A stretch of 64,000 nucleotides of DNA, from contig CAYTJA010000466.1 of NCBI GenBank assembly GCA_964437835.1, forward strand, positions 6,019 through 70,018. Direction: 5' to 3'. The translations under genes and the position numbers were made by a program. The notes beneath the pieces are model-generated. The model did no database searches. It saw only the letters and a program-made list of their open reading frames with translations, and was not told where the DNA came from. This document shows positions 13,302 through 34,800 of the stretch, piece after piece (the stretch's first letter is position 1; the number at the start of each line of letters is the position of its first letter). This DNA is from an uncultured Spirochaetales bacterium (GTDB lineage Bacteria > Myxococcota_A > UBA9160 > SMWR01).

Positions 13302-14471
13302 ATGCTGCCGCCCCCGCAGCCAGGAGTCGCGGTGCAGCCCGAAGCTCTCGAAGCGCGCGCCCGCGCGGCCACTGGCCTCTCCGAGTTCGGCGATCCGAGC
13401 TTCCGCATCGGCCTGGCCGCGCTGTGCGAGAGCGCCGAGCGCGAGGCGCGCCTCAACCCGATCGGCCGGATGCTCTTCGAGGGCTACGTCGGCGGCGCGC
13501 TGGCCAATCGGCTCGCAGTCGAGGAGTACCTGCGCACGCACCCGGAGTGCCTCGCGGGGGAGATCGCGGCGCCGGTCTTCGTGTTCGGCCACGGGCGCAC
13601 CGGCACCACGCTGCTCTCGTATCTGCTCGACTGCGATCCGGCGAACCGCTCGCTGCTGCACTTCGAGGCGGGCAGCTCGATTCCGCCGATCCCGCGCGCA
13701 GCCGTCGCCGCCGACCCGCGCGTGGCCGGCGCGCACGCCGCGCGCGCGGCGAGCGACCAGATCATCCCGGAGATGAAGACGATCCACCGCGAGGAGCCGG
13801 AGGGACCGACCGAGTGCGTGTCCGTGCTGGCGCAGCACTTCCATTCGATGCTCTACGAGACGCTCTACAACCTCCCGAGCTACAGCCGCTGGCTGCTCGA
13901 ATCCGACGCGCGCGCAAGCTATCGCTACCACCGGCGCGTACTCCAGATCCTGCAGACGGGCTGGTCCGGGCGCTGGGTGCTGAAGTCTCCGCAGCACACG
14001 CTCGCGCTGCCGGCGCTGCTCGCGGTCTACCCCGACGCAAAGCTCGTGATGCTGCACCGCGATCCGCGCCTATCGCTCGCGTCGGTGCTGAACCTGATCT
14101 CCACCTTCACGTTTGCTACGAGCGAGGGGGATTTCCGCGCCTACATCGTCTCGCACTGGAAGCAGATCTGGCGCGAGATGGCCACGCGCGCGATCCGAGA
14201 CCGCGCGCGGCTGCCGGCCGCGAGTTGCTTCGACCTGCAGTACGCGGACCTGATGGCACGGCCGCTCGAGACGCTCGCAGGGCTCTACGCGTTCCTCGGC
14301 TGGGACTTCCCGGGAGAGACCGAGGCCCGCATGCGCCGCTATCTGGAGCAGAACCCGCAGGGCCGGCACGGCCGCCACAGCTATTCGCTCGAGCGCTTCG
14401 GCGTCTCCGAGAGCGAGCTGCGCGAGCTGCTCGGCTTCTACGAGGATCACTTCGAGATTCCGCGCGAATAG
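13302..14471 (+). CDS. sulfotransferase family protein
   Basis: Track ORF 12189..14471 trimmed to ATG 13302. PAPS-binding-like FVFGHGRTGTTLLSYLL and later WVLKSPQH...MLHRDP. Confidence 0.75.
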   Translation: MLPPPQPGVAVQPEALEARARAATGLSEFGDPSFRIGLAALCESAEREARLNPIGRMLFEGYVGGALANRLAVEEYLRTHPECLAGEIAAPVFVFGHGRTGTTLLSYLLDCDPANRSLLHFEAGSSIPPIPRAAVAADPRVAGAHAARAASDQIIPEMKTIHREEPEGPTECVSVLAQHFHSMLYETLYNLPSYSRWLLESDARASYRYHRRVLQILQTGWSGRWVLKSPQHTLALPALLAVYPDAKLVMLHRDPRLSLASVLNLISTFTFATSEGDFRAYIVSHWKQIWREMATRAIRDRARLPAASCFDLQYADLMARPLETLAGLYAFLGWDFPGETEARMRRYLEQNPQGRHGRHSYSLERFGVSESELRELLGFYEDHFEIPRE

Positions 14472-16836: not shown

Positions 16837-19800
16837 ATGGCGCGGCGCGGAAGACTCGTGCTCGAGCGCGGCCCCGAAGACGCGGTCGGCCTGCCCGCCT
16901 CGCTCGAGGCCGAGCGCCTGATCCTGGGCCGCGGCAGCGATTCCGACATTCGGCTCCCGGTCGCCGCGGTCTCGCGCGTGCACGCCGAGATCGTCTGGCA
17001 GGGCGAGCGCCTGATGCTGATCGCGCGCAGCACGACCAGCCCGACCGCGGTGAACGGCAGCAGCCTCGAGGGCTCGCGCGAGCTCGCGGACGGCGATCAG
17101 ATCGAGCTCGCGAACCAGGTGCTGCTGCGCGTCGAGCTGCCGCCGGCCGAGCCTGCGCGGGTGGCTGCGGATTCCGCCACGCTGGTGTTTGCCGCGCCGA
17201 CTCCGACTCCGGTGGCTCCAGCGCGCGCCCCGGTGGCGCCCGCAGCTCCGGCGGCGCCGGCGGCTCCTGCGGCGCCAGCAGCCCCTGCGACGCCCGCGCC
17301 CGTTGCGGCGCCAGCAGCGCCTGCGACACCCGTACCCGCTGCGCCGCCGGCAGCCCCTGCTAGGCCCGTACCCGCTGCGCCGCCGGCAGCTGCGGTCGCG
17401 GCTCCGGCAGCGGTCGCTCCGTCCCCCCCCGCCGCTGCGCCCGCGCCAGCCGCGGCGCCTGACGCGTTCAAGGGCCCCGCGCGCATCGCGATCGTCGGCG
17501 CGGGACCCGCCGGCATCGCCGCGGGGGTGCAGGCCGCCAAACGCGGCGTGCCTCACGTGCTGCTCGAGCGCGGCCGCCTGGCCGAGACGATCGAGCGCTA
17601 CCAGAAGGGCAAGTTCGTGATGGACGAGCCCACCCGGCTCACGCTGCATCCCGAGCTCGAGGTCGGCTTCAAGGCCGGCGCGCGCGAGGAGATCCTCGCG
17701 ACCTGGCAGAAGGCCGTGTCGCAGGCCGGAGTCGAGCTGCGCTGCGGGCGCGAGTTCGGGGTCCAGGAGATCCGCGGGCAGCGGGGGGCCTTCGAGCTCG
17801 TGTTGCGCGGTGGCGAGCGAATCCAGGCCACCCACGTGGTGCTCGCGATCGGGGTGCAGGGCAATCTCAAGAGCTTCGGCGTCGCAGGCGACGATCTGCC
17901 CCACGTCACCTATCAGCTCGACGACCCAGCCGCCTACGAGGGCAAGCGCGTCGCGATCGTCGGCGTCGGCGACGCCGGGATCGAGAACGCGCTCGCGCTC
18001 GCGCAGCACGACAACGACGTCTTCATCGTGAACCGGCGCGACGAGTTCGCGCGCGCGAAAGCGCGCAACCGCGCGCTCGTCGATGCCGCGATCAAGAGCG
18101 GCCAGATCGCGCACTACACCCACAGTACGGTCGACCACTTCGAGCCCGGCGCGGTCGTGCTGCGCCGCAAGGAAGGTCAGGAGCGCCTCGAGCTCGACCT
18201 CGTGATCGGCCGCCTCGGCGGAAACCCGCCGCGCGACTTCCTGCAGGGCCTCGGCGTGCAGTTCGCGTCGGAAGATCCCGAGGCCGTGCCCGAGCTCTCG
18301 CCGAGCTACGAGACGAACGTTCCGGGCATCTTCGTGATCGGCGCGCTCGCGGGCTACCCGCTGATCAAGAACTGCATGAACCAGGGCTTCGAGGTCGTCG
18401 AGCACATCCTCGGCCAGCCCGTCACCCCGGCCGACGAGCCGCTGTTGCGCGAGAAGTTCAAGGGCATTCCGGGCAGCGTCAGCGAGATTCTCGAGCGCAT
18501 CCGCCGCCGCGTGCCGGTGTTCCGCGATCTCACGCCGGTCCAGCTGCGTGAGTTCTTGTTCGAAGCGGAGGTGAAGCAACTGAAAGCTGGCGAGGTCGTC
18601 TACCGCCGCAACGACTACACCAACGAGTTCTACGCGGTGCTCGCGGGCAAGGTCGCGCTCGAGGAGCCCTCCCTGGAACGCGACGTCGACGTCGGGCGCA
18701 CGATCGCGTTCACGCGCACGCTGCTCGCACAGGACATCCAGGGCTACCGGCGCGAGGTGCCGATCGGCGGCTTCTTCGGCGAGACCGAGCTCTTCTCGGG
18801 TCGGCGTCGCAGTGCGACGGCCACCGCGCTCGAGCCGACCCTCGTCATCGAGGCGCCGCGCCTCTCGATGGCGCGGCTGCTGCAGTCGACTCCGGCCGTG
18901 CAGCGAGCCGTGGATGCGGTGTTTGTCGAGCGCACGCTCGAAAAGCGCCTGCCCGAGCTCTCCGCGGCCGAGCGCGCGGCGCTCGCGGCTGCGGCCGAGA
19001 TCCGCCACTACCCCCCCGATCAGGTGATCTTCAAGGAAGGCGACGCGCCGGACGGTCTGCACCTGATCCGGCGTGGGTCGGTCGCGATCCAGCGCGTGGT
19101 CGACGGCCGCGAGCGCGTGATGCAGTACCTGCAGACCGGCGCGTGGCTCGGCGTGATGGGCGTGCTGTCGCCGGAGCTCGGCCGCCGAGCATCGGTGCGC
19201 GCGAAGGTGCTGACCGAGACGCTGCTGCTGCCGCAAGCCGCGCTGCTGCCGCTGCTCAAATCGAACCGCGCGCTGCGCGAGGGGCTCCAGCGCTGCGCGA
19301 ACGAGGACGCCGTCTGGGACGCCATGCAGGCCGAGGGCGGCGGCGGAACGATGCTCTTCATTCTCGACAAGACCGGGGCCTTCGAGGCCACCGACCTGCT
19401 GCTGATCGACGAGTCGCTCTGCATCCGCTGCGACAACTGCGAGAAGGCCTGCGCGGACACGCACCTCGGCCTCTCGCGCCTCGATCGCGAAGCCGGGCCG
19501 ACCTATCAGACCTCCGGCGGCGCGCAGCTGCACGTGCCGACGGCCTGCCAGCACTGCGAGAACCCGAAGTGCATGGAGGACTGCCCACCCGACGCGATCC
19601 GCCGCCACGCGAACGGCGAGGTCTACATCAAGGACAACTGCATCGGCTGCGGCAACTGCAAGAACAACTGTCCCTACGGCGTGATCCAAATGGCGACGGT
19701 CGAGCCGTATCGGAAGGCGAACCTGCTGGCTCAGCTGCTGCTCGGCAGCAGCCCGAAGCGCGGCGGCGGCGCGCACGCCGAAGGCGAGGCGCACTCCGAA

Positions 19801-19947
19801 GCCGCGGTGAAGTGCGACCTCTGCCAGGGGCTGCCCGCGCCGAAGCGCGGCGGCACGCGCGCGGCCTGCGTCGCGGCCTGCCCGACCGGAGCGATCGTGC
19901 GCGTCGAGCCGCGCAACTTCATCGCCGAGCTGGTCAAAGGGCGTTGA
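16837..19947 (+). CDS. multidomain redox/signalling protein: FHA, Pro/Ala linker, FAD/NAD(P) pyridine-nucleotide-disulfide-oxidoreductase-like domain, 2x cyclic-nucleotide-binding domain, 4Fe-4S ferredoxin clusters
   Basis: 1036-aa ORF. FHA (LILGRGSDSDIRLPVAAVSRVHAEIVWQG...INGSS-type). IAIVGAGPAGIAAG and VAIVGVGDAGIENA dinucleotide folds. cNMP motifs GGFFGETELFSGRRRSATATA and FKEGDAPDGLHLIRRGSV. Cys clusters CIRCDNCEKAC, CQHCENPKCMEDCP, CIGCGNCKNNCP, CDLCQG...CVAACP. Confidence 0.85.
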   Translation: MARRGRLVLERGPEDAVGLPASLEAERLILGRGSDSDIRLPVAAVSRVHAEIVWQGERLMLIARSTTSPTAVNGSSLEGSRELADGDQIELANQVLLRVELPPAEPARVAADSATLVFAAPTPTPVAPARAPVAPAAPAAPAAPAAPAAPATPAPVAAPAAPATPVPAAPPAAPARPVPAAPPAAAVAAPAAVAPSPPAAAPAPAAAPDAFKGPARIAIVGAGPAGIAAGVQAAKRGVPHVLLERGRLAETIERYQKGKFVMDEPTRLTLHPELEVGFKAGAREEILATWQKAVSQAGVELRCGREFGVQEIRGQRGAFELVLRGGERIQATHVVLAIGVQGNLKSFGVAGDDLPHVTYQLDDPAAYEGKRVAIVGVGDAGIENALALAQHDNDVFIVNRRDEFARAKARNRALVDAAIKSGQIAHYTHSTVDHFEPGAVVLRRKEGQERLELDLVIGRLGGNPPRDFLQGLGVQFASEDPEAVPELSPSYETNVPGIFVIGALAGYPLIKNCMNQGFEVVEHILGQPVTPADEPLLREKFKGIPGSVSEILERIRRRVPVFRDLTPVQLREFLFEAEVKQLKAGEVVYRRNDYTNEFYAVLAGKVALEEPSLERDVDVGRTIAFTRTLLAQDIQGYRREVPIGGFFGETELFSGRRRSATATALEPTLVIEAPRLSMARLLQSTPAVQRAVDAVFVERTLEKRLPELSAAERAALAAAAEIRHYPPDQVIFKEGDAPDGLHLIRRGSVAIQRVVDGRERVMQYLQTGAWLGVMGVLSPELGRRASVRAKVLTETLLLPQAALLPLLKSNRALREGLQRCANEDAVWDAMQAEGGGGTMLFILDKTGAFEATDLLLIDESLCIRCDNCEKACADTHLGLSRLDREAGPTYQTSGGAQLHVPTACQHCENPKCMEDCPPDAIRRHANGEVYIKDNCIGCGNCKNNCPYGVIQMATVEPYRKANLLAQLLLGSSPKRGGGAHAEGEAHSEAAVKCDLCQGLPAPKRGGTRAACVAACPTGAIVRVEPRNFIAELVKGR
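17269..17390 (+). repeat. degenerate 36-nt (12-codon) tandem repeats encoding the Pro/Ala linker
   Basis: Exact 26-nt direct repeat CCCGTACCCGCTGCGCCGCCGGCAGC at 17329-17354 and 17365-17390. Related units GCGGCGCCAGCAGC(C/G)CCTGCGAC start at 17269 and 17305. Period is 36 nt. Confidence 0.7.
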
Positions 19948-19949
19948 GC

Positions 19950-20999
19950 GTGGCCGTGGCCTTCGACCCGCTGATGCGACTTCGCGCGCGCGACCGCCGC
20001 CGGCTCGCAAGCGGCCTCGGGCTGGGCCTCGCGCTGGGCCTGGCACTCTGCGTGGCCGGCTGGCCCGGCACCGGCGTCAGCCTCGCGGGCTTCTGCGCCG
20101 CGAGCGGCCTCGGGCTCGGCTGGGCCAACTGGCCGCAGTGGCGCAAGGCCGCCTGGTGGCGCGGCCGCGGCGGCCTGCCGAAGAGTTACGCCCCCCGCAG
20201 CTTCCTGCGCTACGGGAACTTCCTGCACCTGAAGCTCGCGCTGACTGCCGTGGCCGCCGCCTCGCTCGCCTATCTCCTCGACGACCCGCCCGGAGGTCCC
20301 AGCGGGGGCAGCGCCCTCGGCTATGCGCTCGGGGTCTTCTCGACCGCGTTGGTCGTCTGGCTGCTCTGGTTCGGCGTGCGCAAGCGGCGCTACGACGGCG
20401 GCGGCGCGCCGCTGCAGGCCTGGCTCTCCGGCCACGTCTACCTCGGCCTGACGCTGCTCGTGCTGGTGCCGCTGCACTGCGGCTTCCAGTTCGGCTGGAA
20501 CGTGCACTCGCTGGCCGGAGCCCTGCTGTTCCTGACGCTCGTCTCCGGGATCTTCGGGCTCGTGGCCTACACGCAGATTCCCGCGCGCATGACGCGCAAC
20601 CGTCCCGGTCAGCAGCTCGAGGGCCTGCTGCAGCAGGTCGCCGATATCGACGAGCAGCTGCGCGCCGAGGCGCGCGAGCTGCGCAATGCCGAGCCCGTGC
20701 GGCGCGCGATCGAAGAGACCCGGATCGGTGGCGGCCTCGCGGCGCTGCTCTTCTTCTCGGAGGCGAATTGCGCGACCACGCAGGCGCAGGCCGCGCTGAA
20801 GCGCGCGCGCGACGACGACCCCGGTCTGCTGCGCCCGCTCGAGCTGCTGACGACCAAACAGGCGATCCTGCGCCGCGTGCGGCGCGACCTGCGCTACAAG
20901 GCGCTGCTCGACCTATGGCTCGTGCTGCACGTGCCGCTCTCGCTCGCGTGCGTGGCTGCGGTTGCAGTGCACGTGCTCGCGGTCTTCTACTACCGGTGA
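19950..20999 (+). CDS. polytopic membrane protein with two H-x13-H transmembrane helices (di-haem cytochrome-b-like)
   Basis: Track ORF 19143..20999 trimmed to GTG 19950 (alternative ATG 19974), 3 nt after the upstream stop. About 7 hydrophobic helices. GHVYLGLTLLVLVPLH and LHVPLSLACVAAVAVH each place two His exactly 13 residues apart. Confidence 0.65.
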   Translation: MAVAFDPLMRLRARDRRRLASGLGLGLALGLALCVAGWPGTGVSLAGFCAASGLGLGWANWPQWRKAAWWRGRGGLPKSYAPRSFLRYGNFLHLKLALTAVAAASLAYLLDDPPGGPSGGSALGYALGVFSTALVVWLLWFGVRKRRYDGGGAPLQAWLSGHVYLGLTLLVLVPLHCGFQFGWNVHSLAGALLFLTLVSGIFGLVAYTQIPARMTRNRPGQQLEGLLQQVADIDEQLRAEARELRNAEPVRRAIEETRIGGGLAALLFFSEANCATTQAQAALKRARDDDPGLLRPLELLTTKQAILRRVRRDLRYKALLDLWLVLHVPLSLACVAAVAVHVLAVFYYR

Positions 21000-21002: not shown

Positions 21003-22841
21003 ATGCGACTGCGCCTGATCCAGGTCACGAGGCGGAAGTCCGGGCGCGAGTCGCGGCGCGAGTCGCAGCTCGAGGGCGAGCTGCTCGCACTCGGGCGCGG
21101 CTCCGACTGCGACCTCGAGCTCGTCGACCTGTCCGTCGCGCTCCGGCACGCGGAGCTGTTGCGCAAGGGCGATGGCGTGTACCTGCGGCCGGTCGGCCGC
21201 AGCGAGCTCAGCGTCTCGGGCCAGCGCTGCGTCGGCGAGCGGCGACTCGCGGTCGGCGATGTGGTGCGCATCGGTCCCTTCGAGCTGCGCGCGATCGCGG
21301 CCGAGGCCGGATTCGATCTCGCGCTCGAAGTCGAACAGATGGCGCGCCGCGAGGACGCGCGCGGCGAGCTCGCCAAGCGCAGCCGCCTGACGGTCGAGGG
21401 GGGATGGTTCTCGCGCCGCACGCTCTCCTTTGCCGGCGTCGCGGTGGTGCTGCTCGGCTTCCTCGTGCTGCCGCTCGCGCTCGGGCGCGCGGGCTCCTGG
21501 AGCAGCGGGCCCCTCTCCCACAAACACTCGTTCGCGGCCGATGACTGCGGCGAGTGCCACACGCGCGCGTTCGCCACCGTCGAGAACGGCGCCTGCCTCG
21601 ACTGCCACGCGGAGATCGGCAACCACAGCGACTCCCCGGCGCTCGCAGCCGCCGGCATGACCGGGGCCGCCTGCACCGACTGCCACAGCGAGCACGCGGG
21701 CGAGCCCGGTCTGCTCGCGCGCGCGCAGGACAGCTGCGCGGGCTGCCACACGGATCTCTCGCAGCGGCTCGAGCAGCCGCGCGTCGCGAATGCGAGCGAC
21801 TTCGCTGCGGACCACCCCGAGTTCCAGCTCGCGATGCTCGACCCCGCCACGCGCAAGGCGACCCCCGTCGGCTGGCAGCGGGATCTCGAGGAGCGCTCCG
21901 GCGTGGCCTTCTCACACGCGCGGCACGTCGGTGAAGCATTGCCCGAGGTGCCGGAGCGCCTGCGCAGCGACCCCGCGCGCAAGAGCGAGCCGCTGCGCTG
22001 CTCGAGCTGCCACCAGCTCGAAGCGGGAGGCCAGCGCATGCAGCCGATCGAGTTCGAGAAACACTGTCAGGCCTGCCACCAGCTCGGCTTCGACGCCGCG
22101 CTGCCGGACGACCAGGCGCCGCACGCGAAGCCGGTCGAGCTGCGCGAGGGGCTGCGCAGGCTCTACGCCGCGCAGGTGGTCGCGGGCAATGCGGCCGCGG
22201 TCGCGCTGCCGGAGGCGCTGCGCTTCCGGATCCCCGGCTCGACGCTCTCGGACCAGGAACAGTCGCAGGCGCAGGGCTTCGTCGACGCCCGCGTCCGGCG
22301 CGCCGAGCACGCGCTCTACGTCGAGCCCGGCGAGTGCGCGCGCTGCCACGCGCTCGAGCGCGACGCGCCGGCTGCGAGCGAAGAGAGCGGAGCGGGCGAA
22401 GCGTCCCTGGCCAAGCCGCCGAGCGTTCCGCCGGTCTATATCACCGAGCGCTGGATGCCGCAGTCGATGTTCCGGCACGCGACGCACGCGCCCTTCCCCT
22501 GCGCGGACTGCCACCCGGCCGCGGCGGCCTATCTCGAGGGCGGCGACGCCGAGAACCCGCGCCCCGAGTGGTCGCTGCCGGAGGCCGGGCCCTTTGCCCT
22601 GCGCACAGAAGCCGAGCTCCAAGAGCTCGGGCTGACGCCCAGCAAGCTGGCGTCCGACCTGCTGATTCCCGGCATCGAGCAGTGCCGCGGCTGCCACGGC
22701 GGCGAGAATGCGCGGCCGCCCGAGGTGGCCTCCGAGTGCAGCCTCTGCCACCGCTTCCACCGCGCCGAGCACGGGCCGATGCAGCCGGGCGGCGCGGCGC
22801 GGCCCTCGCCGGTGGCCCGCAACGCGGCGCACTCGGACTGA
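21003..22841 (+). CDS. FHA domain - single TM - decahaem c-type cytochrome
   Basis: 612-aa ORF. N-terminal FHA-like LALGRGSDCDLELVDLSVALRHAELLRKGDGVYL. TM helix LSFAGVAVVLLGFLVLPLAL. Ten CxxCH motifs: CGECH, CLDCH, CTDCH, CAGCH, CSSCH, CQACH, CARCH, CADCH, CRGCH, CSLCH. Confidence 0.85.
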   Translation: MRLRLIQVTRRKSGRESRRESQLEGELLALGRGSDCDLELVDLSVALRHAELLRKGDGVYLRPVGRSELSVSGQRCVGERRLAVGDVVRIGPFELRAIAAEAGFDLALEVEQMARREDARGELAKRSRLTVEGGWFSRRTLSFAGVAVVLLGFLVLPLALGRAGSWSSGPLSHKHSFAADDCGECHTRAFATVENGACLDCHAEIGNHSDSPALAAAGMTGAACTDCHSEHAGEPGLLARAQDSCAGCHTDLSQRLEQPRVANASDFAADHPEFQLAMLDPATRKATPVGWQRDLEERSGVAFSHARHVGEALPEVPERLRSDPARKSEPLRCSSCHQLEAGGQRMQPIEFEKHCQACHQLGFDAALPDDQAPHAKPVELREGLRRLYAAQVVAGNAAAVALPEALRFRIPGSTLSDQEQSQAQGFVDARVRRAEHALYVEPGECARCHALERDAPAASEESGAGEASLAKPPSVPPVYITERWMPQSMFRHATHAPFPCADCHPAAAAYLEGGDAENPRPEWSLPEAGPFALRTEAELQELGLTPSKLASDLLIPGIEQCRGCHGGENARPPEVASECSLCHRFHRAEHGPMQPGGAARPSPVARNAAHSD

Positions 22842-22925
22842 CATTATCGGTCTCGCGACACCACCGCCTCTCCACCCCCGCGAACTGATAGAGTGGCGTT
22901 CGGGGGGAGTAAAGGTGGCGCCGAT

Positions 22926-23570
22926 ATGCAGACTCGAGTCGTGGCGCTATTCGCTGCTCTCATGCTCGCCCCGCTCCAGAGCTCGGCCGGTTCCGGTGGA
23001 GTCGTCACCTTCGGAGGTAGCTCAACACCGGAAGGCTGCACAGGCGGCAACTGCCATCCGGAAGGCAGCCCGGGCTTGACGACTCAGCTCAGCGGTCCCG
23101 GCTCCGTATCGATCGGCACCTTGAATCAATACACGATGAGCGTGGCAGGGGTGACAGCGCTTCAGTTCTGCGGAATCAATATCGCAGCGGACAGCGGCAG
23201 CCTGATGGCGGCCCCACCTTGGACCCAGAAGTACATCTTCTCCGACCAGTTGACGCACACGCAACCGACTCAACCCTGCAGCTTCACATTCGGCTGGGTG
23301 GCACCTGGAACGCCCGACACCTATTACCTCCGCGCGACGGCCGTGGCGGGGAATTCGAATGGCAACCGACGCGACGACACCGCAGTTCCGCTCAACGCAT
23401 TTCCCATCACCGTGCTGCCGGAGCCGAGCCCAAACATGCTGCTGGCAATCGCGGTCGCCACGCTGACCCTTGCCTCGGGCGGTCGTGCCCCCGAGCAGCG
23501 TCCGCTCAGAAGGACACGTCGGCGCCGATGGTCCACAGCACATCGGGGCGCAAGCCATTCTGGCGATTGA
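22926..23570 (+). CDS. secreted protein with CX4CH motif and PEP-CTERM-like C-terminal anchor
   Basis: Track ORF 22893..23570 trimmed to ATG 22926 (signal peptide MQTRVVALFAALMLAPLQSSAG). CTGGNCH motif. C-terminal LPEPSPNMLLAIAVATLTLA followed by an Arg cluster. Lies in a lower-G+C patch. The last 65 nt overlap the convergent OMP gene. Confidence 0.5.
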   Translation: MQTRVVALFAALMLAPLQSSAGSGGVVTFGGSSTPEGCTGGNCHPEGSPGLTTQLSGPGSVSIGTLNQYTMSVAGVTALQFCGINIAADSGSLMAAPPWTQKYIFSDQLTHTQPTQPCSFTFGWVAPGTPDTYYLRATAVAGNSNGNRRDDTAVPLNAFPITVLPEPSPNMLLAIAVATLTLASGGRAPEQRPLRRTRRRRWSTAHRGASHSGD

Positions 23571-24858
23571 GCGGAAAGGACGTATTCCAGAACAGCACCA
23601 CGGTGCCGAAGGGGTTCACCTTGCCACCGACGCCGATGTCCACGGTCGGATCGCCGGAGCGCGGAACGCGCCCGAAGACGTCGGCGGCGAGGGTCAAGCG
23701 CTGAAAGACGCGGACATCCGTCCCCAGGACGTAGCGGAAGGAGTCGCTCGCGGCGGGTCCCGTCGACGCTTCCAATCCGAGGTTCGTGTGGGGAGTGAAG
23801 AGGCTCACTTCCTTCGAGGCGATCATCCAGCCGCCGAAGTCGACCTCCCCGGTCCCCTGGAAGTCGTCTTCGTTGCCGGTATTGAGCTTGATCTGCCCTA
23901 GCACGGCGAGGTCGGGGATGTACTGCTGATCGTCTGCGAAGTGGTACTTCGTGCGCAGCAGCACGTCCCCGATGCCGCCCGACTCCTCGCTGCCCTGGTC
24001 CGTGGAGGGATCTTCGCTCGGAAGGCAGGGGGGCAGCCCGGGTTCGTCGCAGAAATGATGCTTATTGGTGTCAGCGGGCGCAGTGGAAGGATTCGCCGAG
24101 CTGTCCACCCTGGCGACGCTGCGCACCGAGAGCTTCGTGTGTGCAATCGGGAGCATGAAGCCGACGTCCCAACGCTCGGTGATTCCGTAGTTGACGAAGA
24201 ATCGGAACACGTCCTGCGAGAGCTTCAGATCCAGATCGACGATGATGTTCTCGAACTCGAAGGCGGGAAAACCCGGATTGGGCGGCTGGCCGGGGCAGCC
24301 TTCGGGGCGATCGGCCCCGCTCGCACAATCGTCATCGTGGAGAAACACTCGTTGGAGGGAATTCAGATCCTCTCCGTTGAATACCTTGAATTCCTGGCTC
24401 GAAAAGCTGAGACCGAAATTGACCTTGTTCCTTCCGACGGTCTGCGCGCGCTCCGCGAGCAGGGGGCCGAGGCTCTGCGTGGATCGAACGAAGACCGCCT
24501 CGTCCAGATCGAAGGTGAAGGCATTGACTCCGGAGGTGGGCGGGGACAGGTTCGAGGCAGCGCTGATCGCGCTACTCAACTCGGCGAGTTCGGTGATGCC
24601 AGAACCGCTGAAGTGTGCGGTGTGGCCGGCGGAGAAAGTCCTGTCGAGCGTGATCCCGTCGCCTCCGTAGAGGCCGAGGAGCGCATCCGAGACGTCGGCG
24701 TGGGCGGGCGGCGAAGCTCCAGCGATCCAAACGCCGGAAGCGAGAGCAGCTGCGAACCCTGTGCAGCGAGAGCTGGAACCAGCCAACGATCCCTCCAGCC
24801 ACCCCCCACTCGCCTTCCGGCCGCATTCTCTCAAGCGCCCTGCAGGTGGGTCAAGCAC
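23506..24858 (-). CDS. outer-membrane beta-barrel protein
   Basis: 450-aa ORF (start uncertain). Signal-peptide-like AAALASGVWIAGASPPAHA. Alternating amphipathic strands. C-terminus ends ...WTIGADVSF (aromatic terminal residue typical of OMPs). Confidence 0.7.
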   Translation of the reverse strand: MLDPPAGRLRECGRKASGGWLEGSLAGSSSRCTGFAAALASGVWIAGASPPAHADVSDALLGLYGGDGITLDRTFSAGHTAHFSGSGITELAELSSAISAASNLSPPTSGVNAFTFDLDEAVFVRSTQSLGPLLAERAQTVGRNKVNFGLSFSSQEFKVFNGEDLNSLQRVFLHDDDCASGADRPEGCPGQPPNPGFPAFEFENIIVDLDLKLSQDVFRFFVNYGITERWDVGFMLPIAHTKLSVRSVARVDSSANPSTAPADTNKHHFCDEPGLPPCLPSEDPSTDQGSEESGGIGDVLLRTKYHFADDQQYIPDLAVLGQIKLNTGNEDDFQGTGEVDFGGWMIASKEVSLFTPHTNLGLEASTGPAASDSFRYVLGTDVRVFQRLTLAADVFGRVPRSGDPTVDIGVGGKVNPFGTVVLFWNTSFPLNRQNGLRPDVLWTIGADVSF

Positions 24859-24907
24859 TTCCCCGAACCGCGGCTCCGATGAGGCCTGGCTTCGGCATTC
24901 GAGCGAT

Positions 24908-27301
24908 CTAGCCGCCCTTCATGGTCGCGATCCGCCAGACGCCGTCCTTGCGGGAGATTTCCGCGCGCATCTGGCGCGTCTCTCCATTGATCGTCTGGCG
25001 GAAGGTCGCGATCACGATCCCGTCCTGATGCTTCGCGTCGATCAGCTGGGTCTGGACGGCGGAGGCCGGATGCTCCGCGAAGTACGCCCCCATGCTGTCC
25101 CGCTGGATCTCGCTGAGGACCCGAACTCCCTGCATTTCCGCGAGGCTGCCCCTCTGATAGGCGTTCCGGTAGCGCTCCAGGACTTCCTCGGCGACGCGTC
25201 CTGCGTCGAGCTCGTCTTCCACGGAGACGCTGACGATCCGGCTGGTGGACTCGCTGCGGGCGTCGACGGCCTGGAACTCCAGGGTGTGAGGGCCGGAAGC
25301 GGCGGGCGCATAGCGGAACTCGAAATCGGGAGAGGAGGAGGTCGCAACCTCCTGCTGGTCGACGACGACCCGCAGCGATACCGGGCCCTGGGTGTTTCTC
25401 GCCAGCGCCCGGAAGCTCTGCGTGCTTCCCAGCTTCATTTTCTGTGTCGACGAGGCAGGCGTGAGCTCGAGCTCGAGCGCCTTCGCGACCAGGACAGCCG
25501 GTACCGGCGCGGAGACCGGCAGCACCGATGCACTCGTCACCACGGCCCCGGCAGGGGGCCGTGCAGACACGTCCGGGAGGCGCACCGATGTCGTCCCCAT
25601 CTCCAGGGCCGCGATGAAATACTCGCGCGCGCGGCGGAGCTGGGTTTCGGCCTGCTCGAAGGATTCCTCCTCTTGCAGGGTGCGAGACTCGGCGAGGGCG
25701 AGGCTCCCGGCTTCGACCTCCGCTCGGACCCGCGGATCTCTGGACACGAGCGAGCGACTCGAGCGCTCCGCGCTCTCTGCACTCAGCCATTGGGAGCTGA
25801 GGCGCGCGATCCACGCGGCGCGGACCTGCTCGAGCTGCTCCCGAGCCTGGCTGCCCGATGCTTCGATGCGATCGAGCCTGGCGACATCCGTCGCCGCCGC
25901 GGCGCACGCTGCATCGCCCGCAGCAGCCGCTCCGCTCGCCGGCGGCTGCAGCGTCTCTGCGACCGAGCGCTTCAGCTCCGCGAGACGTTCGGGGTAGAGC
26001 GCGCCCACGCCAGCGTGCTCCAGCTTGCGCAGTCCCGTATCCAGCCGTCCACGCGCGTCTTCGACGATCGGGTGCACCGAGCGCCTGGCCTCCTGGCACA
26101 CTTCAGCCAGGCCCTTTCGAATGCCAGCGAGCGCGGAGCCGAGCTCCGCGACCTGCCCTTCGGCGACCTGGGAGCGAGACGCTTCGAGTTCCGACTGGAG
26201 GTCGATCAGGCGCTGGCTCAGCTTTTCCACCAGCGTGGGGTCGGGGAGTAGCGGGGCGAGTCGCTGCACTTCGCCCACGACTCCGGAGGCCTGCTCCCAG
26301 TGGGCCCCTGCGGCGACCAGGCGTTGCTGATTCACGCGAGTCTGGTTCCAACGCCATGCCGTGGTCCCGCCGAAGGCAAGACTCAGAAACAGCCCGCCGG
26401 CGAGCAGGCTGAGATGGATCCGACGCCACAGGCTCCGGGCGGCGATCTCGGGAACGTGGCCCGAGCTCGATGGAAACGCTCGAGCCAGCGCCTCCTGCAT
26501 CTCCTTCGCGTCCTGATAGCGGTCACCCGGCTTCATGCGGGTGGCTTTCGCGATCAGCTTGCTGATTCGCGGGTCGAAGCCGTCTGGAAAGCTGAACTCG
26601 ACTTCGGCACCGGCTCTGTCCAGCCCGCCGAGATAGAACAGCACGGCGTGGTCCTTCTTGAGATCGATGCCTTCGACGGTCGCGTAGGCAGAATGTTCCG
26701 CCAGCGACCAGTAGAGCGAGAGTCCCATCGAGAAGACATCTGCCGACGCGAGCGCGCGTCTGCCACTCGCTTGCTCGGGCGAGATGTACAGAGCGGTTCC
26801 CATCACTTGGGTGCGGTCGTTGCTCGTGAGCTCGTCGCGCGATATGCCGAGATCGCTGACCAGCACCCGTCCGTCGTCACACAGCAGGATGTTCGCCGGC
26901 TTGATGTCGCGGTGGACGAGGTGCTTCCGATGCAGCTCGGCCAGGCCTTCGAGGGCCTCGCGGTAGATCCGAACCGCATCCTCGAGGGACAGCTGGCCTT
27001 CCGCATGGAGGTTCGAGCCCCGCACGAGCTCCATGGCATACCAATACAAGCCGGCCGCTTCGTCCTTCCCGCGGTCGTAGATCTGGACCAGGTTCTGATG
27101 CTTGAATTGCGATAGGCGCTTGGATTCAGCTTCGAATTCTCTCCACAGCTCCCCTGAGGCGAACTGAGGCTTCAGCACTTTTACAGCGCAGGGGCGATCC
27201 CATTTTTCGTCCCAGGCCTCGTAGACCCAAGCCATCCCGCCCTCTCCGAGGAGATCCTTGACCGGGAAGTTGGGAATCTTGGGAAACGAACCCGAATCCA
27301 T
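24908..27301 (-). CDS. receptor-type Ser/Thr protein kinase (Hanks-type) with TM and large extracytoplasmic region
   Basis: 797-aa ORF. GEGGMAWVY...AVKVLK, HRDIKPANILL, DLGISR, GTALYISPEQ motifs. TM helix LSLLAGGLFLSLAFGG. Long C-terminal region ending in an NTF2-like module. Confidence 0.9.
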   Translation of the reverse strand: MDSGSFPKIPNFPVKDLLGEGGMAWVYEAWDEKWDRPCAVKVLKPQFASGELWREFEAESKRLSQFKHQNLVQIYDRGKDEAAGLYWYAMELVRGSNLHAEGQLSLEDAVRIYREALEGLAELHRKHLVHRDIKPANILLCDDGRVLVSDLGISRDELTSNDRTQVMGTALYISPEQASGRRALASADVFSMGLSLYWSLAEHSAYATVEGIDLKKDHAVLFYLGGLDRAGAEVEFSFPDGFDPRISKLIAKATRMKPGDRYQDAKEMQEALARAFPSSSGHVPEIAARSLWRRIHLSLLAGGLFLSLAFGGTTAWRWNQTRVNQQRLVAAGAHWEQASGVVGEVQRLAPLLPDPTLVEKLSQRLIDLQSELEASRSQVAEGQVAELGSALAGIRKGLAEVCQEARRSVHPIVEDARGRLDTGLRKLEHAGVGALYPERLAELKRSVAETLQPPASGAAAAGDAACAAAATDVARLDRIEASGSQAREQLEQVRAAWIARLSSQWLSAESAERSSRSLVSRDPRVRAEVEAGSLALAESRTLQEEESFEQAETQLRRAREYFIAALEMGTTSVRLPDVSARPPAGAVVTSASVLPVSAPVPAVLVAKALELELTPASSTQKMKLGSTQSFRALARNTQGPVSLRVVVDQQEVATSSSPDFEFRYAPAASGPHTLEFQAVDARSESTSRIVSVSVEDELDAGRVAEEVLERYRNAYQRGSLAEMQGVRVLSEIQRDSMGAYFAEHPASAVQTQLIDAKHQDGIVIATFRQTINGETRQMRAEISRKDGVWRIATMKGG

Positions 27302-27574: not shown

Positions 27575-29635
27575 TTGCGCCTCAGCACCACGGGGATCTA
27601 CTGCGTCGCCGCCGCATCGGCGCTGTTGCTGGCGAGCTGCAAAGGGAAAAGCAGCCCGCGCGGGGGCCCGGACTCCCTCTGCGATGGCGCGTGCCTGCAA
27701 CAGGCGCTTACGCAGAACGATGTCGAGCACGTGGTCGCGCAGGCCAGCATCGAGGCGCAGGCCCAGGGCCTGCCGGTCACGATCGCGGTAGTCGACCGCG
27801 TCGGAAATGTGCTCGCGGTGTTCCGCATGACGGGCGCGTCGACCACCGTGGAGATCTCGGCCGGCCGTTCGAGCGCAAACGGTTCGGGGCTCGCCGGCTT
27901 CGAAATCGAGACGACGCTGGCCGCGATCAGCAAGGCCGGCACTGCGGCCTATCTCTCCTCGCAGGGCAACGCCTTTTCCACCCGGACCGCGAGCCAGATC
28001 GTGCAGGAGAACTTCAACCCGGGGGAGCGCGTGCGCGCGGGTGGCCCACTCTTCGGCGTGCAGTTCTCGCAGCTTCCCTGCGGAGATTTCGTGCGGCGTT
28101 TCGAGAGGAATGGCCTGACCGAGGACGTCTCGCTCGGACCCAAGCGCATGCCGCTCGGCTTCTCGGCCGATCCGGGCGGACTTCCGCTCTACAAGAGCGG
28201 CGTGCCCGTCGGCGGCGTCGGGATCGAGCTCGGCACGAACGCGAGCGCGCCGGCCGAGCAGAGCTACCGAACCGATCCCGACGTGCTCGACCAGGACGTC
28301 CAGCGCGAGGAACGCATCGCGACTGCCGCGGCTGTGAGCTTTGCGGCGCCCGCGAACCGGCGCGCGAACGCGATCTCCGTCGACGGCCGCTTCCTGCGCT
28401 TTGCGGACGATGAGCGCGTCTCGACGCAGCCGATCCCACTCGCGACGCCCGTGACTCTCCCGCCCTCGCTCGGGGTACTCGTGGATGTCGACGGCTTCTT
28501 CGCCGGGGGCGGCGTCCTCGCGGGCACGGAATTGCTGACCCCGGCCTCCGGCATCGTCGCGAGCAGTGTGGACGGGATCGCGGCCGAGCTCGTGGTCAAA
28601 ACGGACGGCACGAATCGCTACCCCGCGATCGACTCGCTCGTGCCCACGCCGGCGGCGGGCGGCATGAGCACCGCCGAAGTCACCGCCGTGCTGCGCGAGG
28701 CATTGCGCGTCGCCGGCCGCTCGCGCGCGCAGATCCGCCGGCCCGCGGGCTCGTCGGTGCGCGTGAACATCTCCATCGTCGACACCGAAGGAACGGTGCT
28801 CGGCTTCGCGCGCACGCCCGACGCGCCGATCTTCGGCGCGGACGTCTCGCTGCAGAAAGCGCGCACGGCGGCGTTCCTGTCGCGGCTCGTGCCTACCTCC
28901 GCAGCCGACGATCTGATCGCGGCGCTCCCGCCACTGCCGGAAGTCACCGCGAAATTCGACACGCGCCCGGTTTCCGAATACCTGATCGCGGCCCAGACTT
29001 TCCTCGCGAAGCCCGATGTCCTCGACGACGGCACCGCGATCAGCGACCGCACGCTCGGCAACCTCGCGCGGCCTTTCTTCCCGGACGGCGTGAACGGCAA
29101 CCCGCCCGGCCCCTTTTCGCGCGTCTTCGAGCGCTGGAGCCCCTTCTCGACCGGGCTGCAGCTCGACGCCGGCCTGCAGGGCATCGCGGTTGCGCTGTGC
29201 CGGAGCTCGCGCGAGCTCCGCAGCCTCCTGTCGATGACCGCCGTCGGCATGTCTCTGATCCCCCCGATCGACCCCGACTTTCCGAACACCTGTCCGGCCG
29301 AGCCGATCGCCTGCACCGATGCGCTCGGCCTCGACCCCGCGCTGCGCGAGCTCGCGAACGGCCTGCAGATCTTTCCCGGCAGCGTGCCGATCTACCGCGG
29401 CTCGCAGCTCGTCGGCGCGATCGGGGTCTCGGGGGACGGCGTCGATCAGGACGACATGGTCGCGTTCCTCGGCCTGCACAACGCGGGCCAGCTGCTCGGC
29501 ACCGGGATCGGAAACGCCCCGATTGCGCAGCGCGCCGACCAGATCCAGGTCGGCGGCGTCAACCTGCGTTATGTGAGCTGTCCGCCGAGCCCCTTCCTCG
29601 ACAGCTCGGAGCAGAGCCCGTGCAAGGGACTGTGA
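27575..29635 (+). CDS. lipoprotein with two GlcG/HbpS-like (DUF336) putative haem-binding domains
   Basis: 686-aa ORF (TTG start). Lipobox LLLASC. Domain 1: VTIAVVDRVGNVLAVFRM...AISKAGTAAYLSS...GGLPLYKSGVPVGGVGI. Domain 2: VNISIVDTEGTVLGFARTPDAPIFGADVSLQKARTAAF...IYRGSQLVGAIGVSGDGVDQDDMVA. Confidence 0.7.
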   Translation: MRLSTTGIYCVAAASALLLASCKGKSSPRGGPDSLCDGACLQQALTQNDVEHVVAQASIEAQAQGLPVTIAVVDRVGNVLAVFRMTGASTTVEISAGRSSANGSGLAGFEIETTLAAISKAGTAAYLSSQGNAFSTRTASQIVQENFNPGERVRAGGPLFGVQFSQLPCGDFVRRFERNGLTEDVSLGPKRMPLGFSADPGGLPLYKSGVPVGGVGIELGTNASAPAEQSYRTDPDVLDQDVQREERIATAAAVSFAAPANRRANAISVDGRFLRFADDERVSTQPIPLATPVTLPPSLGVLVDVDGFFAGGGVLAGTELLTPASGIVASSVDGIAAELVVKTDGTNRYPAIDSLVPTPAAGGMSTAEVTAVLREALRVAGRSRAQIRRPAGSSVRVNISIVDTEGTVLGFARTPDAPIFGADVSLQKARTAAFLSRLVPTSAADDLIAALPPLPEVTAKFDTRPVSEYLIAAQTFLAKPDVLDDGTAISDRTLGNLARPFFPDGVNGNPPGPFSRVFERWSPFSTGLQLDAGLQGIAVALCRSSRELRSLLSMTAVGMSLIPPIDPDFPNTCPAEPIACTDALGLDPALRELANGLQIFPGSVPIYRGSQLVGAIGVSGDGVDQDDMVAFLGLHNAGQLLGTGIGNAPIAQRADQIQVGGVNLRYVSCPPSPFLDSSEQSPCKGL

Positions 29636-31837: not shown

Positions 31838-34800
31838 ATGAAGCTCGCGTTTCCGCTCACGACCGCCCTCGCCGCCGCACTGCTCGCGGCGGTCGCGGCA
31901 GGCGCAGCCGAAGGAGAGGCGCCGCGCGAGATCGCCTATCCGAGCACCCCACCCGCGCCCGAGCACCAGGACAGCGCGCAAGCGGAGGCCAAGAGCGCGG
32001 GCTGCCGCAGCTGCCATACCCCGATGGACGAGGCGAGCATGCACGCGACGCCGGGCGTCGAGCTCGGCTGCAGCGACTGCCACGGCGGAAATGCCGAGAC
32101 CGCGCGCCCCGCGCAGAGTTTTCCGGGCGGCCGCGCCTACGAAGAGGCCAAGGCGCGCGCGCACGTGCAGCCGCGCTATCCGCACGCGTGGGGCCTCGAC
32201 GAGGAGGGGCGGCGTGTCGGCCCGCAGCCGGTGCGCGCCTACACGCTCTACAACCGCGAAGCACCGGAATTCATCCGCTTCGTGAACCCGGGCGACCTGC
32301 GCGTGGCCGAGGAAGCCTGCGGCGCGTGCCACGCGGAGATCGTGCAGGCGAACCGGCGCAGCCTGATGGCGACCGGCGCGATGCTCTGGGGAGGAGCCTC
32401 GTACAACAACGGGATTCTTCCCTTCAAGCGCTACGTGCTCGGCGAGGCCTACACGCGCGACGGTCAGCCGGCCGCGATCGAGAGCCGCTTCGAAATCAGC
32501 CCCGAGCTCGCGAAGCGCGGCGTGCTGCCGCGCTTCCTGCCGCTGCCCGCCTGGGAGACGATCCCTCCTATGGACAACTTCCGCGTCTTCGAGCGCGGCG
32601 GCAAGTTCAACGTTTCGCAGTTCCCGGAGATCGGTCTGCCCAAGTCGCAGGACGATCCCGGCAAGCCCGACATCCGCCAGAGCAACCGCGGCGAGGGCAC
32701 CGGCGCGCGCATCGCGGTGCCCGCGCTGAACATCCACAAGACGCGCCTCAACGATCCCTTGCTGTGGTTCCCCGGCACGAACGACAACCCCGGCGACTTC
32801 CGCGCCTCGGGCTGCAGCGGCTGCCACGTCGTCTACGCGAACGACCGCGAGCCGCTGCACTCGGGCCTCTACGCGGCCGCCGGGCACCAGGGCCAGTCCC
32901 AGAGCGCCGACCCGACGATCGCGGAGCGGCTGAACGCCAGCGGCCACAAGGAGTCCGGCCACCCGCTGAAGCACGCCTTCACGCGCGCAATTCCGACCGC
33001 GCAGTGCATGACCTGCCACATGCATCAGCCGAACATGTTCGTGAACTCCTACCTCGGCTACACGATGTGGGACTACGAGGCCGATGCGCCGCTGATGTGG
33101 CCGAAGCAGCAGGCCTACCCCTCCATCCCGGAGATGCACGAGCGCCTCGAGCGCAACCCCGAGGAGGCGAACATCCGTGGCCTCTGGGGAGACCCCGAAT
33201 TCCTCTCCCGCGTCTGGGACGACGTAAACCCGCAGGCGCGCGACACGCAGTTTGCCGACTATCACGGCCACGGCTGGAACTTCCGCGGCGTGTTCAAGCG
33301 CAACCGCAAGGGCGCGCTGCTCGACGCGAAGGGCGAGACGATCCCCGACGACCTGCCGCCCAAGCAGAAATGGCAGCGAGCGGTCCACCTGCGCGACATC
33401 CACGTCGAGTACGGGATGCAGTGCTCGGACTGCCACTTCGCACAGGACTCGCACGGCGACGGCTTCCTGAAAGGGGAGGTCGCGGCCGCGGTCGAGATCG
33501 GCTGCGCGGACTGCCACGGCACCAGCCGCGCGCGGCCGACGCTGCGCACATCGGGCCCCGCGGCACCGCCGGGCGGCAACGACCTCAGCTTCTTGCGCAA
33601 CGCGGATGGCGGCGCGCGCTTCGTCTGGCGCGGCGAGCGCTTGTACCAGCGCCTGGTCCTGCCGCCGCACACAGAGATCGAAGTCACGCAGGTGATCGAC
33701 ACCGTGACCAGGGGCCATCCGGCCTACAACGCCAAGGCCGCGCGCGCGAAGACCCTCGAGCGCGGGCCCGGCCAGCGCTGGGGCGAGGCGGCTTCGGGTT
33801 GCGAACGCGCGCACGACGACGAGAAGCTGGCCTGCTTCAGCTGCCACTCGTCGTGGGTCACGAGCTGCGGCGGCTGCCACCTGCCGATCCAGGCCAACTG
33901 GAAGACCGAGCGCCACCACTACGAGGGCGGCGAGACGCGCAACTTCGCGACCTACAACCCGCAGGTCGCGCGCGACGAGATGTTCCAGCTGGGCGTCCAC
34001 GGCGAGGCGAAAAACGGCATCATCGCGCCGGTGCGCTCGTCCTCGGCGCTGGTGCTCTCGTCGACCGACATCAACCGCAACCGCATCTACCAGCAGCAGC
34101 CGCCGGTCTCGGCCGGCGGTTTCAGCGCGCAGGCCTTTGCGCCGCACTTCCCGCACACGGTGCGCAAGACCGAGACCAAGACCTGCACGGACTGCCACGT
34201 CTCGCAGCGCAACGACAACAATGCGCTGATGGCGCAGCTGCTGCTGCTCGGCACGAACTTCGTGAACTTCACCGGCTACAACGCGTGGGTCGGAGGCGAG
34301 CGCCATCTCTCCGCGATCCAGGTCACCGAGTGGGACGAGCCGCAGGCCGTACTCGGGAGCTACCTGCACCGGTACGCCTATCCCGACTGGTTCGCGGAGC
34401 ACGAGGCGCGCGGCCGCGAACTCACGCGGCCGAGCCCGGGCGCACTCGACGCGGACCCCGGCTGGGTCGCCTCGCTGCGGCGCTTCTTCCAGGGGAGCTT
34501 CGGAGGCCACGCGATCTACGACGGAACCTACGGCCACGGCTCGGGCCCGGTCGGCTGCCTGCAGCTGCGCGGCGAGTACCTCTACGCGGCCGAGGGCCCG
34601 CGCGGCATGCAGGCCTACGACGTCGCGTCGGTCGCGAACAAGGGCTTCTCGGAGCGCGTGGTCACGGCGCCCTTCTCGCCGCTGGGCCAGAACCTGCGCG
34701 TGAAGTCACGCAACGCGACTTGCGTTGCGCTGCCGACGACCCAGCCGATCCGCCCCGAGCGCAACCGCCAGGTTCGCGAGGCGTTTCCCGAGAACCTCGA

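Follow-up and report, generated by a model that had tools for sequence, protein, structure and literature searches.

An FHA-domain decahaem cytochrome family encoded in a conserved three-gene module with a flavin/iron-sulphur protein and a putative dihaem cytochrome b

A 64,000-nucleotide stretch of contig CAYTJA010000466.1 from an uncultured Spirochaetales bacterium (hereafter the window) carries a gene, here called gene 3, whose predicted product joins a forkhead-associated (FHA) domain through one transmembrane (TM) helix to a c-type cytochrome domain with ten haem-attachment motifs. Sequence comparisons indicate that this architecture is not a one-off and that gene 3 is a typical member of a large, widespread family. 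Together with the two genes directly upstream, it appears from spacing and synteny to form a conserved, translationally coupled three-gene module. These two partner genes are the decisive context, and they were overlooked in an earlier interpretation made from the letters of the DNA (the sequence-only reading). The explanation that we favour, at somewhat better than even confidence, is that gene 3 supplies the haem wire on the periplasmic side of a transmembrane electron module of three subunits, and that its FHA domain serves for docking or regulation in the cytoplasm and is probably non-canonical with respect to phosphothreonine (pThr). The explanation draws on the architecture, the fold, topology statistics, synteny, a gene fusion, a histidine pattern and residue conservation. 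The genes of the module and the parts of gene 3 are as follows (pLDDT, predicted local distance difference test; cNMP, cyclic nucleoside monophosphate).

16837..19947, + strand: gene 1, predicted cytoplasmic protein of 1036 residues with an FHA domain, an Ala/Pro linker, Pyr_redox_3/2, three cNMP-binding domains and a four-[4Fe-4S] ferredoxin (Pfam 4Fe-4S dicluster)
19950..20999, + strand: gene 2, protein with five TM helices, putative dihaem cytochrome b; GTG start, two H-x13-H pairs, pLDDT 86
21003..22841, + strand: gene 3, FHA-TM-decahaem cytochrome c of 612 residues; ATG start; assigned from Pfam, CxxCH motifs and AlphaFold2
21003..21338, + strand: gene 3 residues 1-112, FHA-fold domain, predicted cytoplasmic; Pfam, Foldseek, pLDDT 93-98; Gly31, Arg32 and His49 kept, Ser replaced by Ala46, loop Asn absent
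21339..21413, + strand: gene 3 residues 113-137, basic juxtamembrane linker; low confidence (pLDDT 52-69), pairwise identity 17%
21414..21482, + strand: gene 3 residues 138-160, single TM helix, N-in/C-out by hydropathy, model helix and positive-inside statistics
21483..22838, + strand: predicted periplasmic decahaem domain of gene 3; CxxCH motifs start at nucleotides 21546, 21594, 21672, 21735, 21999, 22065, 22335, 22500, 22683 and 22737

Architecture, topology and family of gene 3

The G+C content at third codon positions of gene 3 is 0.93, compared with about 0.70 G+C for the window, which argues that it is a real coding gene of a high-GC genome. A gene-fusion or misannotation artefact was rejected on the basis of this value and of full-length conservation in 161 proteins. 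Residues 13-96 match the Pfam FHA family (PF00498) at 37.3 bits against a cut-off of 20.7, and the best-scoring Pfam match of the same residues is Yop-YscD_cpl (39.3 bits, cut-off 33.2). Hydropathy reveals a single strongly hydrophobic segment, with its peak at 141-161, and all ten CxxCH motifs (residues 182, 198, 224, 245, 333, 355, 445, 500, 561 and 579) lie C-terminal to it, the first about 20 residues past the TM helix. Cytochrome_C7, Cytochrom_c3_2 and Cytochrom_CIII each exceed their Pfam cut-offs in the protein.

An AlphaFold2 model built from 143 homologues has a mean pLDDT of 89.9 and a helix at residues 138-160. When this model was compared with the PDB by Foldseek, all 50 listed matches (of 67 at E<=0.001) were FHA domains, including FhaA (3poa, TM-score 0.76), GarA, OdhI, Ki67 and YscD (4a0e, 4d9v); the TM-scores are normalised to the target and reach 0.79 among the matches listed. 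The model thereby gives the N-terminus a beta-sandwich FHA fold. The sequence-only reading had described an FHA-like N-terminus of about 100 residues, a hydrophobic helix at roughly residues 140-160 and ten CxxCH motifs. Pfam, AlphaFold2 and Foldseek bear out the first of these, the one TM helix lies at residues 138-160 of the model, and exactly ten motifs were counted.

The same reading had claimed that a single polypeptide combines a cytoplasmic FHA domain with a periplasmic decahaem domain, and both charge statistics and a gene fusion support it in this. Haem attachment to c-type cytochromes takes place in the periplasm. Gene 3 lacks a signal peptide, and exactly one TM segment, at residue 131-147, is found in 160 of the 161 family members. 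The mean net charge across these members is +2.8 in the 15 residues before the TM segment and -0.06 in the 15 residues after it. In a metagenome-assembled genome (MAG) of Bryobacterales (locus L008, CAVOVR010000006.1), one open reading frame at 9563-12547 encodes, in this order, FHA, TM, six or seven haems, TM, Fer4 and Pyr_redox, and it adjoins a cNMP-Fer4 gene and the TM gene. This order of domains would place both the N-terminal FHA domain and the C-terminal iron-sulphur (FeS)/flavin part in the cytoplasm, with the haems outside. By sequence, gene 3 is thus predicted to be a bitopic inner-membrane protein with the FHA domain inside, one TM helix and ten haems in the periplasm. The L008 reading frame, read from the upstream stop codon, contains two Pfam FHA stretches; its true start may lie further upstream, and a tandem FHA is possible.

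A word-indexed search returned 13 full-length homologues with 26-63% identity, and a repeat with a 143-sequence profile returned the same 13 proteins. An exhaustive profile search that covered 1.84 billion cluster representatives (clusters at 50% identity) returned 2079 representatives at E<=1e-30. The best 150 of these are all full length (profile positions ~1 to ~545) with E<=1e-134. At 50% identity the family comprises no fewer than 150 clusters, and their number is probably near a thousand. Its carriers include MAGs labelled Caulobacter, Rhodospirillaceae, Burkholderiales, Granulosicoccaceae and Bryobacterales. A single-protein genome scan found three true relatives (L006-L008), among them a homologue in a Burkholderiales MAG (L006) with 30% identity and 10 haems. 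About 36 matches from Acidobacteriaceae and other taxa were rejected as family members, as they align to residues 155-266 only; seven of them that were inspected (L009-L011, L013, L019, L039 and L043) are cytochromes of the ordinary kind, which have a signal peptide, carry 9-13 haems and lack an FHA domain.

Conservation extends over the whole length of the protein. Ten CxxCH motifs are present in 154 of the 161 members, nine in six and thirteen in one. Among the 13 homologues, the ten motifs and nine other His residues are invariant. In the 143-sequence alignment the motifs are invariant save for H249, C333 and C579, which are near-invariant (>=90%), and further invariant His residues are found at positions 175, 231, 271, 305, 308, 374, 492 and 586, with H208 and H495 at >=90%. 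These extra conserved His residues are likely to serve as distal haem ligands, judging from the alignment. Mean pairwise identity is 28.7% in the FHA region and 27.4% in the haem-domain columns without Cys and His. The FHA region is therefore as conserved as the haem scaffold, which suggests that the FHA domain is under comparable selection. The sequence-only reading would have failed if the true start codon lay downstream of the FHA-like region. Residue 1 is aligned to Met in 143 of the 161 members, and this, together with conservation of the FHA region, argues for a start upstream of the FHA domain; the in-frame alternative starts all lie within the domain.

Relatives outside the family are distant. 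No close solved relative of the decahaem domain was found by sequence, the best being ActA (6btm, E 0.032). Gene 3 has no Cytochrom_NNT match at E<=0.01 and no NCBIfam match that would link it to the NapC/NirT family, and it scores 24.1 bits against the MtrA/DmsE model TIGR03508, below the cut-off of 192.2. By these scores, gene 3 is a member of neither the NapC/NirT nor the MtrA/DmsE families. Among solved structures and curated families, none uniting FHA with a multihaem cytochrome was found. Promoter and terminator scans gave nothing above chance.

The gene 1-gene 2-gene 3 module

The GTG start codon of gene 2 lies 2 nucleotides after the stop codon of gene 1, and the ATG of gene 3 lies 3 nucleotides after the stop codon of gene 2. 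The order gene 1-gene 2-gene 3 is found in all ten of the loci that have upstream sequence, which are the window, L001, L002, L004/L005, L045, L046, L047, L048, the contig of cytochrome P0010 and a Rhodospirillaceae contig. In the last of these the trio stands alone, suggesting that it is an autonomous core.

Gene 1 would supply the module with electrons. The nearest PDB relatives of its flavin part are YpdA, thioredoxin reductases (TrxR) and TrxR-type ferredoxin-NADP reductases (FNR), and by sequence this part has no CxxC. The C-terminus contains four Cys clusters, and its nearest relatives are the four-cluster electron-transfer subunits ArrB, HycB, FdnH, NarH and NrfC, of which such proteins as FdnH and NarH dock on membrane cytochromes b. 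The N-terminal FHA domain of gene 1 is found in only the clade of the window, L001 and L046, and it keeps Arg, Ser and His, unlike the FHA domain of gene 3. The linker that follows (domain and linker together, window 16837-17470) consists of about 110 residues, including 51 Ala and 34 Pro, with several Thr-Pro motifs, and may serve as a kinase substrate or as the ligand of an FHA domain.

Gene 2 contains two H-x13-H pairs, H163/H177 in TM3 and H328/H342 in TM5, which are kept in 113-114 of 114 homologues. Four His residues in two TM helices, with a spacing that fits two haems, are the pattern expected of cytochrome b561 and other dihaem cytochromes b. Among these homologues, 107 match PF01292 (prokaryotic cytochrome b561) at E<=1 (best 2.3e-8), 38 match Ferric_reduct and 24 match DUF4405, and some bear a precomputed PF01292 annotation. 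Lys plus Arg residues number 4.05 in the loop between TM2 and TM3, 3.0 after TM4 and 4.5 before TM5, and about 0-0.6 in the other loops; a helical insert of about 100 residues lies between TM4 and TM5. These charges would place H163 and H328 near the cytoplasmic face and H177 and H342 near the periplasmic face, with the insert in the cytoplasm. On the evidence of this pattern, gene 2 is most likely a carrier of two b haems that lie close to opposite faces of the membrane. Within the insert, Thr216 and Thr258 are kept in about 88% of the 114 homologues (motifs M-T-x-N-R-P-G and T-R-I-G-G-G) and are candidate phosphorylation or docking sites.

From this evidence we infer which cofactors gene 2 binds, how the subunits make contact, which way the electrons flow and what the FHA domain does. 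The three proteins would form one complex that carries electrons across the inner membrane, from NAD(P)H to flavin adenine dinucleotide (FAD), then through four [4Fe-4S] clusters to the haem b on the cytoplasmic side, the haem b on the periplasmic side and the ten c haems. The c haems would pass electrons to periplasmic partners, which in the window may be an HbpS-like protein and an LVIVD decahaem protein (genes 4 and 6, described below). Membrane potential would favour outward flow. The FHA fold of gene 3 would most likely dock or position either the flavo-FeS subunit (gene 1) or the cytoplasmic insert of gene 2 at the membrane, and the cNMP domains of gene 1 may act as an allosteric input. 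Regulation by cNMP and by neighbouring Ser/Thr-signalling proteins is likely to be layered on top.

The FHA pocket and the neighbouring genes

Canonical pThr recognition depends on an Arg in the b3-b4 loop, a Ser in the b4-b5 loop and an Asn in the b6-b7 loop, along with structural Gly and His residues. The corresponding residues were mapped by a gapless phmmer alignment of gene 3 residues 19-95 to the pThr-binding domain of FhaA. The canonical Gly-Arg and His have their counterparts in Gly31-Arg32 and His49. The phosphate-binding Ser of the "SRxH" motif is Ala46, and the "S-T-N-G" loop of FhaA is R66-S67-E68-L69, with Glu68 at the position of Asn; gene 3 hence falls outside the domains with a full pThr-contact set. 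Lack of the Arg/Ser/His/Asn contacts would have counted against the sequence-only reading, and half of this was observed: Arg32 and His49 are kept, Ser and Asn are gone.

The same tendency runs through the family. Among the 161 members, Gly is present in all, Arg in 134 (with Ser instead in 17) and His in 137, and the structural "VNG" turn is retained (Asn in 121, Gly in 126). The Ser position is occupied by Ala in 78, Ser in 23, Pro in 16 and Gly in 12, and the Asn of the pThr loop is conserved nowhere in the family. Arg, Ser and His occur together in only 19 members; the commonest pattern, Arg-Ala-His, is found in 58, gene 3 included. Within the domain, conservation is lowest in the loops that bind peptide. 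The FHA fold and its structural residues are thus conserved, and the residues that contact phosphate and peptide largely are not. Ala46, the missing Asn and the scarcity of the Arg-Ser-His combination make canonical pThr reading by the FHA domain of gene 3 doubtful on sequence grounds; gene 3 and most other members are probably not canonical readers of pThr.

In six loci the core is directly followed by genes for an HbpS-like protein, a secreted protein without a family and a multihaem protein of about 1300 residues with an LVIVD propeller. In the window, a 4.7-kb insert of three genes (22893-27301) parts gene 3 from these genes; the insert is missing in L001, the closest relative (63% identity). 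The features downstream of gene 3 are as follows.

22893..23570, + strand: insert gene, secreted choice-of-anchor V protein with a PEP-CTERM/MXYO-CTERM-like tail (NCBIfam 82.4 bits), outside the conserved cluster
23506..24858, - strand: insert gene, outer-membrane barrel-like protein, weak Phenol_MetA_deg match
24908..27301, - strand: insert gene, Hanks-type Ser/Thr protein kinase of 797 residues, candidate regulator (Pkinase 122.9 bits; PknB-like)
27575..29635, + strand: gene 4, lipoprotein-like, three HbpS-like (haem-binding/degrading) stretches (Pfam 89.7 bits); syntenic in L001, L004, L045, L046 and L047
29620..31824, + strand: gene 5, secreted protein with no family match; start at 29620 or 29632
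31838..35731, + strand: gene 6, secreted protein of 1297 residues with ten CxxCH motifs and an LVIVD beta-propeller; syntenic in 6 further loci
35756..37093, - strand: cytochrome c554-like multihaem protein with four CxxCH and one CxxxxCH, a recurring neighbour (also in L004, L007, L047 and the P0010 contig)

The choice-of-anchor V/MXYO-CTERM-like protein, together with a G+C content of about 70%, is a weak hint of Myxococcota. Gene 6 has, in addition, a weak ExtM-like match, and the products of genes 4 and 6 are possibly the terminal periplasmic redox enzyme. Signalling genes recur near the cluster. A tandem-FHA protein is encoded near it in L004, L007, the P0010 contig and L046, together with a PP2C phosphatase in L004 and L007; the tandem-FHA regions at 15145-15979 in L004, 9109-11196 in L007 and 12874-13827 in the P0010 contig all lie downstream of the cluster. 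In the clade formed by these three loci, the FHA domain of the cytochrome has lost Arg, and Gly-Ser replaces Gly-Arg. The recurrence of Ser/Thr-signalling genes by the cluster makes a system-level link of the module to phospho-signalling plausible, to the extent that gene neighbourhood can indicate it. The interpretation given in the sequence-only reading therefore stands in part: its topology across two compartments is right, and a direct coupling through pThr is doubtful in view of the incomplete pocket. The FHA domain of gene 3 might answer phospho-signalling indirectly.

Next to the module in L002 (11848-15033) and L048 (12095-14362 and 3702-4847) are genes for nucleotide cyclases (CHASE2-cyclase and GAF-PAS-cyclase) and for a MIP channel that binds cNMP, which fits the cNMP-binding domains of gene 1. 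Elsewhere in the window, the regions 37172-38761 and 53394-63333 encode an HDOD-GGDEF protein, a sigma-54 response regulator and flagellar export genes (FliO/P, FlhA, FlhF). A transketolase gene lies at 9650-11692 (- strand), and one is likewise found upstream of the cluster in L047.

Alternative explanations and known systems

Several observations weigh against the electron-module explanation that we favour. Gene 2 of the window scores below threshold for PF01292 (12.6 bits against 30.1), no family exceeds its threshold, and neither Foldseek comparison of the gene 2 model with the PDB nor a profile search of PDB sequences gave anything significant, so that its b-haem assignment rests, for the window protein, on the His pattern and sub-threshold Pfam matches. 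As to the FHA domain, Arg32 has a counterpart in 83% of members, and Arg, Ser and His occur together in 12%, so some phospho-dependent binding is possible. The recurrence of kinase, PP2C and tandem-FHA genes near the module argues for a real phospho-link. These points bear on the explanation of the sequence-only reading, in which the FHA domain reads pThr, a kinase such as that at 24908-27301 phosphorylates a partner, and docking on pThr switches the periplasmic carrier. Its strengths are a sound FHA fold and Pfam score, the retained Arg32 and His49, the 19 members with Arg, Ser and His, and the kinase gene inserted in the cluster of the window. The near-canonical FHA domain and Thr-Pro linker of gene 1 in the window clade, and a tandem-FHA gene downstream in L004, L007 and the P0010 contig (with PP2C in L004 and L007), loci whose cytochromes (P0010, P0011) are only 48% identical, also fit. 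We nevertheless consider this explanation unlikely. Ala takes the place of the phosphate-binding Ser in gene 3 and in 78 of the 161 members and just 23 have Ser, a conserved loop Asn is absent throughout the family and the peptide-binding loops vary most, the cytochromes of the very clade with PP2C and tandem-FHA genes lack the FHA Arg as well, and L001, the closest relative, has no kinase. A related proposal, that the FHA domains of genes 3 and 1 act as a phosphorylation- and cNMP-gated clutch, with the kinase and PP2C setting the docking of the flavo-FeS subunit to the dihaem-b/decahaem conduit, is likewise tentative and in our judgement improbable. If true, eukaryote-like phospho-signalling would directly switch trans-envelope electron export, a regulatory principle that is not known so far from any respiratory or extracellular-electron-transfer chain.

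There are two further explanations. Gene 3 could be a quinol dehydrogenase or quinone reductase of the NapC/NirT/CymA kind, in which the TM helix and a membrane-proximal haem exchange electrons with the quinone pool and the neighbours are accessory. The bitopic layout of one TM helix and a periplasmic multihaem domain is the same, and a quinone link was put forward for a similar cytochrome of Ferrigenium (bioRxiv 10.64898/2026.01.22.701106). Gene 3, however, has no NapC/NirT match at E<=0.01, its first haem motif is about 20 residues beyond the TM helix, and a four-His membrane subunit and a cytoplasmic NAD(P)H/FeS subunit accompany it in 10 of 10 loci and are fused in L008, which favours a route across the membrane over one through quinone; we judge a quinone link to be quite unlikely. 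The idea that the FHA fold oligomerises like the YscD/EscD/PrgH ring builders of type III secretion to give a multi-copy haem array derives from the top Pfam score (Yop-YscD_cpl, 39.3 bits), the presence of YscD (4a0e, 4d9v) among the fold matches, the shared FHA-TM-periplasmic-domain topology and the similarly degenerate pThr residues. The actinobacterial pThr-binding FHA domains (FhaA, GarA, OdhI) match better than YscD, and secretion-system genes were not seen with the cluster, so that this idea appears very unlikely.

The literature offers no characterised example of the architecture, in agreement with the sequence-only reading, which knew of none. Mentions of the gene 3 family amount to one table entry and two preprint paragraphs, and the family is experimentally unstudied. 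A table of Gallionellaceae cytochromes contains a cluster (403), present in 27 genomes, that is annotated "Forkhead-associated protein" and has 10 CXXCH motifs (Hoover et al., mSystems 2023, PMC10734462). The nonahaem cytochrome c (NHC) of Ferrigenium straubiae has a cytosolic FHA domain and one TM helix and adjoins a 5-TM and a 4Fe-4S protein; its authors describe the combination as unreported before and of unknown function, and they see no redox motif in the TM protein and favour a quinone link (bioRxiv 10.64898/2026.01.22.701106). Compared by description, gene 3 resembles NHC and cluster 403 in its FHA domain, one TM helix, nine or ten haems and 5-TM and [4Fe-4S] neighbours, and by this match of architecture and neighbourhood it can be filed with them as a kind that has been noted but not characterised. 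The window module differs from these descriptions in the FHA domain on gene 1 and the kinase insert. The ptdABCDEFG operon of marine bacteria encodes an FAD/NAD(P) oxidoreductase (PtdC), a protein with cNMP and two 4Fe-4S domains (PtdE), a ferric-reductase-like TM protein (PtdF) and a decahaem cytochrome (PtdG); the function of the operon is unknown, and PtdG is described as periplasmic, with no mention of FHA (bioRxiv 10.1101/2023.11.21.568154). By description, genes 1-3 mirror the order PtdE-PtdF-PtdG (cNMP/FeS, dihaem-b-like TM, decahaem). The flavoprotein PtdC is a separate gene in ptd and is fused into gene 1 in the window, and ptd has in addition a porin (PtdB) and penta- and tetrahaem genes (the PtdA/PtdD cytochromes).

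The logic of the module is that of better-known complexes. A cytoplasmic FeS protein is paired with a membrane dihaem cytochrome b, and sometimes with a periplasmic multihaem cytochrome c, in NarH-NarI, in FdnH-FdnI and in Tmc/Hmc/DsrMKJOP of sulphate reducers; electron exporters of the NOX/ferric-reductase kind are a further comparison. As in NarHI, FdnHI and Tmc/Hmc, a four-cluster ferredoxin would sit on a two-haem TM subunit, and the FeS part of gene 1 is near FdnH and NarH. The module differs in that it has no molybdopterin or CCG subunit, its cytochrome c subunit has its own TM anchor and FHA domain, and its electron-input subunit bears cNMP domains. At the level of sequence it does not belong to the NarHI, FdnHI, Tmc/Hmc or NOX families. 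The layout of gene 3 (N-terminal cytoplasmic FHA domain, one TM helix, extracytoplasmic domain) also recalls YscD/EscD, FhaB/FipA (Rv0019c) and GltG, a resemblance seen in Pfam, NCBIfam and fold matches too, and the YscD-type domains likewise lack pThr-binding residues; gene 3 differs from YscD, FhaB and GltG in its outer decahaem domain and in its redox context, the context of the others being secretion, motility or cell division. By both sequence and fold, the solved FHA domains nearest to that of gene 3 are those of GarA, OdhI and FhaA, which are soluble and have the full Arg/Ser/Asn set, whereas gene 3 has Ala and Glu in place of Ser and Asn. GarA and OdhI also bind unphosphorylated metabolic enzymes via the FHA surface.

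To the existing descriptions our analysis adds the putative dihaem-b assignment of gene 2, with its four invariant His residues and relationship to b561, the Bryobacterales (Rosetta-stone) fusion, the family-wide degeneration of the pThr pocket and the recurrent neighbourhood of kinase, PP2C, FHA and cyclase genes. It also points to targets: in gene 2 the four His residues and the conserved Thr216 and Thr258, in the FHA domain Arg32 and Ala46, and the fusion protein of Bryobacterales. For iron oxidisers, and for many other bacteria of the environment, the passage of electrons across the inner membrane is still to be explained. If the module is an NAD(P)H-to-periplasm conduit with cNMP and FHA modules, it would be a new inner-membrane entry or exit for extracellular and periplasmic electron transfer, and a rare respiratory component tied to Ser/Thr or second-messenger signalling.

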